Assembly: GCF_013167455.1 (NCBI RefSeq)
Contig: NZ_CP038328.1
DNA length: 64,000 nt
Reading direction: 5' to 3' (one strand)
DNA from: Escherichia coli O157:H7
GTDB taxonomy: Bacteria; Pseudomonadota; Gammaproteobacteria; Enterobacterales; Enterobacteriaceae
In this document: one piece after another, positions 21,001 to 24,000 of the stretch
How positions within the stretch are numbered: position 1 is the stretch's first letter
How the letters are laid out: each line of letters opens with the position of its first letter
Program-made: the position numbers

Positions 21001-24000
21001 GATTACAGCGCTGTTAGACTTCGTGTTGATGAGGCGTTTTCCCTACGGCGGCTCACGGCAAAAGTCATTGGTGAAATTGAGTCTATTGCTACGCTTACCG
21101 CAGCGATTGCCAGCGGCATGGGCGTTGCAGTATTACCCGAATCGGCCGCGCGTTCGTTATGTGGCGCAGTAAATGGGTGGATGTCACGCATTACCACGCC
21201 TTCCATGAGTCTCTCTTTGTCATTAAATTTACCCGCCAGAGCGAACTTATCGCCACAGGCACAGGCAGTGAAAGAGTTGTTAATGTCAGTGATTAGTTCT
21301 CCAGTGATGGAAAAAAGGCAGTGGCAATTGGTGAGCTAAGCGTTATATCGGGATGGAATAAGATGCGGGTTTTTATTATTTGTTATGCCGGGCGTTAGAC
21401 TTTAACAATAACGGGATATCTGAACTGCCCGGAGTTTACCGTGAATTTCCAACAACTAAAGATAATCCGCGAAGCTGCACGTCAGGATTACAACCTGACA
21501 GAGGTTGCGAATATGCTTTTTACCTCACAGTCAGGCGTCAGCCGTCATATTCGGGAACTGGAGGATGAACTTGGCATCGAAATATTTGTTCGACGAGGTA
21601 AGCGACTGCTGGGCATGACTGAACCGGGCAAAGCATTACTGGTCATTGCAGAACGTATTCTCAATGAAGCCAGTAATGTTCGTCGGCTTGCAGACCTGTT
21701 TACCAACGATACGTCTGGCGTTCTGAACCGCCCCGGGTTTCCTGGAGAGTGTTTTATCTGTGAACTCAGGCTGCCAGATCATCGTTTCCGATGGAAGCAT
21801 AATAAGCTTTTTCTGCTTCTGCCGGAGGAGTATGGCCCAGCCTTCCCAGCAATCGTCGATTGTTATACCAGTCCACCCACGTTAGTGTGGCCAGTTCCAC
21901 TTCTGCACGGTTTTTCCAGCTCTTACGGTGTATTACCTCCGCTTTGTAAAGACCATTGATGCTCTCAGCCATCGCGTTGTCATACGAGTCGCCTGTACTC
22001 CCTGTTGATGCCAGTAATCCGGCTTCTTTTAGTCGCTCCGTATAGGCCAGTGACACATACTGAGAGCCTTTATCGCTGTGATGGATGGTGCCAGACGGAC
22101 GACGGGCCCACAACGCCTGCTCCAGCGCATCCAGCACGAATGTCGTTTCCATAGACGATGAGACCCGCCACCCCACGATGTATCCGGCAAACACATCAAT
22201 GATAAACGCCACATAGACGAAGCCCTGCCATGTGCTGACGTAAGTAAAATCAGCCACCCACAGCTGGTCAGGTCGTTCTGCCACGAACTGACGGTTTACG
22301 CGGTCGCCTGCGGCAACGGCTTTCCGGCTGATGGTCGTACGGACCTTTTTACCCCGGAGAACACCGGCAAGTCCCATAACCGCCATGAGACGTGCCACTG
22401 TACATCTGGCCACCCTGATTCCTTCCCGTAACAACTGACGCCAGACTTTACGCACACCGTACACCTGATGATTTTCATCGTATACGCGCTGTATCTCTCT
22501 CTTCAGCCAGTCGTCGTGCTGCGCACGGGCACTGCGTTTATCCGGATGATGTCGCTGTTGCTGACAATGGTAATACGTTGACGGGGCAATATGCAGTTCG
22601 CTGCATACCGGTCCGACCCCGTACTGCTCACGCAGCTTATCCAGCAGTGGCATCATTTTTTCCAGAGGCGGTCGAACTCCGCCTTCGCAAAATAAGCGGA
22701 AGCCTGGCGAAGGATATCGTTACTGCGGCGCAGTTCACGATTTTCACGTTCCAGCTCTTTCAGACGCTGACGTTCAGCGCTGGTGAGCCCACCATCACCG
22801 CCCCCGGTATCCCGCTCATGCTGGCGAACCCAGACACGCAGAGTCTCCGGCGTACAGCCAATCTTTGGGGCAATGGAACAAATTGCCGCCCACTGTGAGT
22901 CATATTCATCCTGACTTTCCAGAACCATACGAATCGCCCGCTGACGGACTTCGGGGGAAAAACGAGTATTTTTAGTCATCCTGTTTACCTCTTTCTCAGG
23001 GAGTTTAGTCTCCAGGATTTCCGGGGCGGTTCATTCTCACTATTGCAACGACGCATACTCAGGCACGTTATAGCTTGCCAGAGGTCATTAAAGCTTTTCG
23101 CGAACTTTTCCCGGAGGTTCGGCTCGAGCTAATCCAGGGGACGCCACAGGAAATTGCGACGTTGTTGCATAATGGTGAAGCTGATATTGGTATCGCCAGC
23201 GAGCGTTTGAGTAATGACCCGCAGCTCGTCGCCTTCCCGTGGTTTCGTTGGCACCATAGTTTGCTTGTTCCACACGATCATCCCTTGACGCAAATTACAC
23301 CATTGACGCTGGAATCAATAGCGAAGTGGCCGTTAATCACTTACCGACAGGGGATTACGGGGCGCTCACGTATTGATGACGCATTTGCCCGCAAAGGTTT
23401 GCTGGCAGATATTATATTAAGTGCGCAGGATTCTGATGTCATTAAAACCTATGTTGCTCTTGGGCTTGGGATCGGATTAGTTGCCGAACAATCCAGCGGT
23501 GAACAAGAGGAAAAGAATTTAATCCGCCTGGATACGCGGCATCTTTTCGATGCTAATACTGTCTGGTTGGGACTGAAGCGAGGACAACTTCAGCGTAACT
23601 ATGTCTGGCGCTTTCTGGAACTTTGCAATGCAGGACTTTCAGTTGAGGATATCAAGCGGCAGGTGATGGAAAACAGTGAAGAGGAAATTGATTATCAGAT
23701 ATAGCAAAAAGCCCGCTATAAAAGCGGGCTTTTCAGAAATTTGGCTCCTCTGACTGGACTCGAACCAGTGACATACGGATTAACAGTCCGCCGTTCTACC
23801 GACTGAACTACAGAGGAATCGCTGTTGAGGCACATCTTAACGGCGAAAAATCTTTTGTCAAACCCGATTTTTAATTTTCCCAACTGTTTGCCGTTTCTAT
23901 CAACAGTTTGTTGCATTTGCAGACAATTTGATGGCGAAAATCTTTGCAGCTTTGCTGATTCTCCCTCATTATTTGAAATGTGGTTTCACTTTCTGCAATT

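Follow-up and report, generated by a model that had tools for sequence, protein, structure and literature searches.

What does it mean for Escherichia coli O157:H7 that a copy of the insertion sequence IS629 sits inside cbl, the gene for a LysR-type activator of sulfonate-sulfur operons? We address this question for the allele cbl::IS629 in a 64,000-nucleotide stretch of contig NZ_CP038328.1 (assembly GCF_013167455.1), hereafter the window. We propose that a recent IS629 transposition split cbl, that no functional Cbl would be made, that the strain is predicted to fail on sulfonates, and that the insertion is most likely a neutral or nearly neutral by-product of transposition. Our confidence in this explanation as a whole is high.

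The cbl reading frame opens with GTG at 21441, in agreement with the start annotated in K-12, and is interrupted after nucleotide 283, at position 21723. The original prediction had placed IS629 after codon ~94 with a TTC duplication, and this localization holds up at nucleotide resolution. The break falls within codon 95 (V94 is GTT; L95 is divided between its C and its TC), and the target-site duplication TTC is read from the sequence at 21721–21723 on the left and at 23034–23036 on the right. The 5′ fragment (21441–21723, plus strand) comprises nucleotides 1–283, that is, residues 1–94 and the first base of codon 95, and specifies the winged helix-turn-helix (HTH) and the linker helix. The 3′ fragment (23037–23704, plus strand) comprises nucleotides 284–951, including the stop codon, and specifies the effector (LysR substrate-binding) domain. 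Each fragment is identical to its counterpart in the cbl gene of O157:H7 FRIK1989. Removing the element and one TTC in silico gives an open cbl frame of 951 nucleotides and 316 amino acids, which shows 0 differences (100% identity) from FRIK1989 cbl and differs from K-12 at 15 of 951 nucleotides and 5 of 316 residues.

For membership in the Cbl family we required that a protein match the NCBIfam equivalog NF009324 along its whole length and exceed the curated cutoff, 491 bits. The reconstructed 316-residue product scores 686.1 bits over the full length of this model. The gene as it stands in the window fails it, since the 5′ fragment reaches 205.6 bits (profile positions 1–96) and the 3′ fragment 430.5 bits (positions 108–316), both under the cutoff. 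The predicted separation of the HTH from the effector domain is borne out as well, with one refinement. PDB 2FYI, in which the Cbl cofactor-binding domain was crystallized, aligns with residues 87–306, which places the break 8 residues into the crystallized effector/cofactor-binding domain and not exactly at the domain border; the linker helix remains on the HTH side. The longest open reading frame (ORF) of the 3′ fragment (23075–23704, 209 residues, TTG start) corresponds to residues 108–316 and is without the first strand of the effector domain. At the other end, an ORF listing contains a hybrid frame of 172 residues (21441–21959, plus strand) made of 95 Cbl residues and 77 residues from the antisense strand of the element; its translation turns from ...TSGVL into NRPGFPGE... 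at the junction and reaches a stop codon at 21957–21959. An exact look-up of this hybrid product in public assemblies returned no record, probably because draft contigs break within the insertion sequence.

The inserted element is a complete IS629 (= IS1203) of 1310 bp (21724–23033, minus strand), with its transposase genes antisense to cbl. Over its full length it shares 100% identity with copies annotated as 'IS3-like element IS1203 family' in many O157:H7 genomes, and the Sakai annotation labels matching copies IS629 ('IS629 transposase OrfB'). Its terminal inverted repeats, orfB-proximal at 21724–21748 and orfA-proximal at 23009–23033, are 25 nucleotides each and 88% complementary to one another. 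The DDE transposase part is encoded by orfB (21766–22656, minus strand; 296 residues), which matches positions 93–369 of the NCBIfam model transpos_IS3 (NF033516) at 316.3 bits, and the transposase HTH part by orfA (22653–22979, minus strand; 108 residues), which matches positions 1–86 of the same model. The two frames overlap by 4 nucleotides, and the overlap is covered by an ALIL pseudoknot, a programmed −1 frameshift signal (22582–22698, minus strand), which matches the whole of Rfam RF01497 (positions 1–117) at 121.5 bits, where the gathering score is 50. Length, sequence identity, imperfect inverted repeats, two overlapping ORFs with a frameshift signal, and the 3-bp duplication thus all agree with IS629/IS1203. 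With both ends, both frames, and the frameshift pseudoknot in place, this complete copy looks transposition-competent from its sequence. At the right junction the element ends in GGCGGTTCA and cbl resumes with TTCTCACT; the k-mers for the two junctions of the allele are GATACGTCTGGCGTTCTGAACCGCCCCGGG and CCGGGGCGGTTCATTCTCACTATTGCAACG.

The surroundings of the insertion are those of K-12 and O157:H7 chromosomes. Upstream, the other member of the nac-cbl pair is intact: nac (20422–21339, plus strand) matches the NCBIfam NAC equivalog NF008410 at 600.5 bits (cutoff 309) over its full length, positions 1–305. Downstream lies a tRNA-Asn gene (23745–23817, minus strand; Rfam tRNA, 72.6 bits) at the place where K-12 has asnU. 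As this downstream neighbor is convergent with cbl, other genes should escape any polar effect. The order ldtA, tRNA-Asn, nac, cbl, tRNA-Asn, yeeO is the same in K-12 and FRIK1989, and the wider gene set (cobUST, ldtA, tRNA-Asn, nac, cbl, tRNA-Asn, yeeO, yeeN, amn, shiA, yeeJ) is as in K-12 and O157:H7. The flanks of cbl::IS629 are 100% identical to O157:H7 genomes, and a Shigella origin, which the number of insertion sequences had suggested at first, is rejected on that ground. When positions 1–44349 of the window are compared with FRIK1989, a single mismatch occurs in ~40 kb of aligned non-IS sequence, and otherwise only three IS629 insertions differ.

The requirement for Cbl in sulfonate-sulfur use was reportedly established in K-12, not in O157:H7, and the primary K-12 work on the role of Cbl is said to be that of Iwanicka-Nowicka and Hryniewicz (1995) and van der Ploeg et al. 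(1997, 1999). Two later papers that cite this work (PMC11794783 and PMC11495319) describe tauABCD and ssuEADCB as activated by Cbl, and the role given to Cbl in the original prediction agrees with them. Both target operons lie outside the window and are annotated as intact in the lineage reference Sakai (ECs_0419–0422 and ECs_1016–1020), and the cbl insertion would thus be the first lesion of the pathway and not the sequel to prior decay. We envisage that IS629 moved into the cbl gene on a chromosome of the O157:H7 lineage and divided that gene within codon 95. The 5′ fragment would then yield at most the DNA-binding head and linker helix joined to 77 junk residues, and anything made from the 3′ fragment would lack both the native start and the DNA-binding head. 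Given these limits on the two fragments, no functional Cbl activator should be made. When sulfate or cysteine is limiting, the tauABCD and ssuEADCB promoters that depend on Cbl would stay unactivated, and the strain would be expected not to grow if its sulfur came solely from taurine or aliphatic sulfonates. The use of sulfate, thiosulfate, cysteine, and glutathione for growth would depend on CysB and should be unaffected. On this basis we infer that cbl::IS629 is a null allele, with a predicted loss of the sulfate-starvation induction of tauABCD and ssuEADCB.

How old and how widespread is this allele? Apart from the insertion, cbl does not differ from its uninterrupted FRIK1989 counterpart, which argues that the insertion is recent and that no later decay has followed; neither the extra disabling mutations nor the raised divergence from FRIK1989 that would mark an old pseudogene occur in the cbl fragments. 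A survey of 5426 E. coli genomes, all complete RefSeq entries, found the arrangement in 0, and the left-junction 35-mer has 0 matches in a metagenome contig collection. Only a single record matches the cbl::IS query over 80% or more of its length, and we rejected it as the same allele, as it carries an IS3-family element in nac and has an intact cbl. The exact 209-residue C-terminal product is, on the other hand, encoded on AOEF01000105.1, a contig of the draft GCA_000335015.2 (E. coli 99.1793), where the protein is entered as ELV56806.1, 'lysR substrate binding domain protein [Escherichia coli 99.1793]'. This contig begins within IS629, and its right junction to cbl is the same as that of the window. 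The intact Cbl protein is encoded on at least 1000 contigs, against a handful for the 209-residue fragment. Judged by its sequence and distribution, cbl::IS629 has the look of a transposition that happened recently and is nearly private.

The literature searched contains no paper that includes both IS629 and cbl. What we describe is an unreported allele and not a new phenomenon, as the insertion sequence, the regulator, and the mode of inactivation are all known. Inactivation by IS629 is well documented for this element and lineage, with IS629/IS1203 insertion polymorphisms in EHEC O157:H7 attributed to Ooka et al. 2009 (Genome Res) in PMC9943667.

The window holds four copies of IS629, identical in sequence and each flanked by a perfect 3-bp duplication (CAC, TTC, AAC, and TAC). 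With perfect duplications at all four copies and the same right junction at cbl in a separate draft, chance is not an issue. The prophage copy (59664–60973) is annotated in FRIK1989 too, where its gene context is the same, with a SASA esterase gene on one side and a holin gene on the other. A further copy, at 30568–31877 within a glycosyltransferase-9 gene, occupies exactly the site that it occupies in the complete O157:H7 genomes G5295 and ECP19-598. For the copy at 10656–11965, which lies within a TonB-dependent receptor gene, a site-specific query found the site occupied in no complete genome, and the same junction is present in the draft GCA_000335195.2. Other matches to the 540-residue fragment of this receptor were set aside, as they mostly reflect a different event, an IS2 insertion in O55:H7 DEC5B. 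The cbl copy is the rarest of the four insertions. Three lineage-restricted IS629 insertions lie inside 21 kb, which exceeds the random scatter expected of a few new copies, and this clustering may reflect local transposition.

The original prediction called the mutation plausibly pathoadaptive or a decay mutation. That label finds no support in its distribution among complete genomes (0/5426), in the absence of secondary decay, or in its place among several lineage-restricted IS629 hops. The most likely reading is that IS629 activity in this sub-lineage produced the insertion recently, as a neutral or near-neutral by-product, and not that it is an established adaptive loss; adaptive loss and a functional switch are minority readings beside it. 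Were cbl inactivation selected, for instance during persistence outside the host or in cattle, the shutdown of the sulfonate-scavenging regulon might save a cost or alter stress physiology. A lead in this direction, not proof, comes from a systematic K-12 screen in which deletion of cbl gave 5- to 10-fold higher 42-day soil survival in three experiments (PMC11794783), although that gain was not complemented by a cbl plasmid (PMC11794783) and was seen in K-12. Separate null alleles of the same cbl allele in public assemblies point the same way: GCA_026010635.1 and SRR24951882 have a 13-bp deletion, a contig that recurs in at least 20 samples has a 2-bp insertion, and a metagenome scaffold has a GAA>TAA nonsense mutation at codon 61. 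A further disruption, by a 1-bp insertion, is doubtful: some of the null alleles may be assembly errors, this one for example. Together the disruptions indicate that loss of cbl is tolerated and recurrent, but the intact protein on at least 1000 contigs makes null alleles a small minority. With the 209-residue fragment on only a handful of contigs and the insertion in none of the complete genomes surveyed, we regard selection for this loss as improbable.

We give somewhat more room, though still as an unlikely reading, to the idea that the insertion is a transient OFF state, in which transposase-dependent excision of IS629 promoted by IEE reinstates cbl where no sulfur source but sulfonates is available. 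IEE is common in O157 and promotes IS629 excision in this transposase-dependent manner (PMC9943667). In O121:H19, IEE-mediated excision of IS600 restores lacZ, and with it lactose use, and gives a delayed-utilization phenotype (PMC9397093). The insertion sequence in cbl is complete, and its excision together with one TTC would leave a perfect ORF, so that the knockout may prove reversible, a possibility absent from the original prediction, provided that the strain has an intact iee, which lies outside the window. A culture might then grow late on sulfonates, through Cbl+ revertants, rather than not at all. Such reversibility belongs, however, to the IS/IEE system and says nothing on whether this site acts as a switch, and a consensus sequence cannot reveal an IS-free subpopulation. 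The two ideas can also be combined, with cbl::IS629 as one case of a recurrent, selectable, IEE-reversible OFF state of the sulfonate-scavenging regulon in O157:H7, in which loss of Cbl aids persistence outside the host, as the K-12 soil result hints, and excision restores the gene when organosulfonates alone supply sulfur; we consider this composite quite improbable, and a little more so than selection for the loss itself. An assembly error could also have misplaced a repeat element into cbl, and four identical IS629 copies in one window are a classic source of such errors. Against this stand the perfect 3-bp duplication, the exact restoration of the ORF on removal of the element, and the separate short-read draft contig AOEF01000105.1, one end of which lies in IS629, with the same right junction to cbl, and which so excludes a misassembly specific to this window. 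We therefore assign an artefact a negligible probability.

A near-neutral IS629 insertion in cbl has a small practical meaning. For the sub-lineage it predicts a simple diagnostic phenotype, namely that growth is absent or delayed when all sulfur must come from taurine or alkanesulfonates, and the junction sequence of the allele is usable as a strain marker for IS-based O157:H7 typing. More broadly, cbl::IS629 adds to the cases in which IS629 reshapes the metabolism of O157. Greater weight would attach to it only if the loss of cbl were selected in environmental persistence or switched reversibly by IEE.

Set against known systems, cbl::IS629 resembles the IS629 polymorphisms of O157:H7 in its element (100% identity), its host lineage, and the strain-specific inactivation of a gene with a small duplication, whereas its target, cbl, is without a match in the literature searched or in complete RefSeq genomes. 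Like lacZ::IS600 in STEC O121:H19 (an E. coli that makes Shiga toxin), it is an IS3-family element that disables a non-essential nutrient-use gene in EHEC, and one whose excision may restore the gene. The O121:H19 insertion, however, is fixed in most circulating strains and its reversion has been demonstrated (PMC9397093), whereas cbl::IS629 is nearly private and may revert. With the cbl mutants of K-12 it shares the loss of the same LysR-type activator (311 of 316 residues identical) and an expected failure to draw sulfur from taurine or aliphatic sulfonates; the K-12 mutants were engineered or selected, whereas cbl::IS629 is natural, arose in an O157:H7 background, and has a predicted phenotype. 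In E. coli Eco_23-2678 (NZ_CM176498.1), a related IS3-family element has struck this pair of regulator genes too, but there the element is only ~97% similar, nac is the gene disrupted, and cbl is intact.

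Three of the four IS629 copies in the window, the one that splits cbl among them, are lineage-restricted insertions that lie inside 21 kb (10656-31877), and none of the three is present in FRIK1989, an O157:H7 strain with an intact cbl. A handful of new copies placed at random in a 5.5-Mb genome would not be expected to lie this close together; the spacing may point to local hopping, or to a burst of IS629 activity, in the sub-lineage of the window. The fourth copy (59664-60973, target-site duplication TAC) occupies the interval between a SASA-family esterase gene and a holin gene of a lambdoid prophage. 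The FRIK1989 annotation places an IS1203/IS629 copy between the same two genes, so the prophage copy predates the other three.

The copy at 10656-11965, oriented opposite to the cbl copy and bounded by a CAC duplication, breaks a yoeA-like TonB-dependent receptor gene that runs uninterrupted for 2148 nt in FRIK1989. This insertion had no match at the same site among complete RefSeq genomes; the draft assembly GCA_000335195.2 has the same IS629 junction in the receptor gene as the window. Homology to the K-12 yoeA remnant ends at position 11971, 5 nt from the IS629 boundary, and O55:H7 DEC5B carries an IS2 about 10 nt from the insertion site. The receptor-gene site may be a hot spot for insertion sequences. 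The third copy (30568-31877, duplication AAC) lies inside a glycosyltransferase family 9 gene whose K-12 counterpart is the pseudogene yeeL. Two complete O157:H7 genomes, G5295 and ECP19-598, have exactly this insertion, as do several read-set assemblies. In O111 strains this gene also contains an IS629-like element, but arranged differently, with a match across the insertion of 2371 bp versus 2310.

Disruption at nac-cbl extends to other public assemblies. At five loci with the same cbl allele as the window (L005 2693-3630, L008, L009, L010 and L011), cbl carries independent null mutations: a 13-bp deletion (GCA_026010635.1, SRR24951882), a 2-bp CT insertion on a contig found in at least 20 samples, a metagenome-scaffold nonsense codon at E61 (GAA>TAA), and an insertion of a single T (1 bp), possibly an error. 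The E. coli strain Eco_23-2678, which came from an African green monkey, carries an IS3-family element in nac, the neighbour of cbl, and has an intact cbl (L001 2717-4947, NZ_CM176498.1).

Upstream of cobU, an IS66-family ISEc8 with tnpA, tnpB and transposase genes (13918-16251) adjoins a cobalamin-biosynthesis gene remnant; O157:H7 genomes share it, and K-12 is without it there. The inverse-autotransporter adhesin gene yeeJ (32963-41020, 2685 aa) contains tandem segments of about 85% mutual identity (36520-37910), corresponding to Big_1/Invasin_D3 repeats. At 41435-46223, mtfA and a tRNA-Ser gene precede a lambdoid prophage, whose integrase is frameshifted according to the annotation of the identical FRIK1989 sequence. 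Four near-identical tRNA-Asn genes (20024-20096, 23745-23817, 25566-25638 and ~41250-41358) are potential recombination substrates around the nac-cbl locus; they flank nac-cbl, yeeO and yeeJ, as asnV, asnU, asnW and asnT do in K-12.
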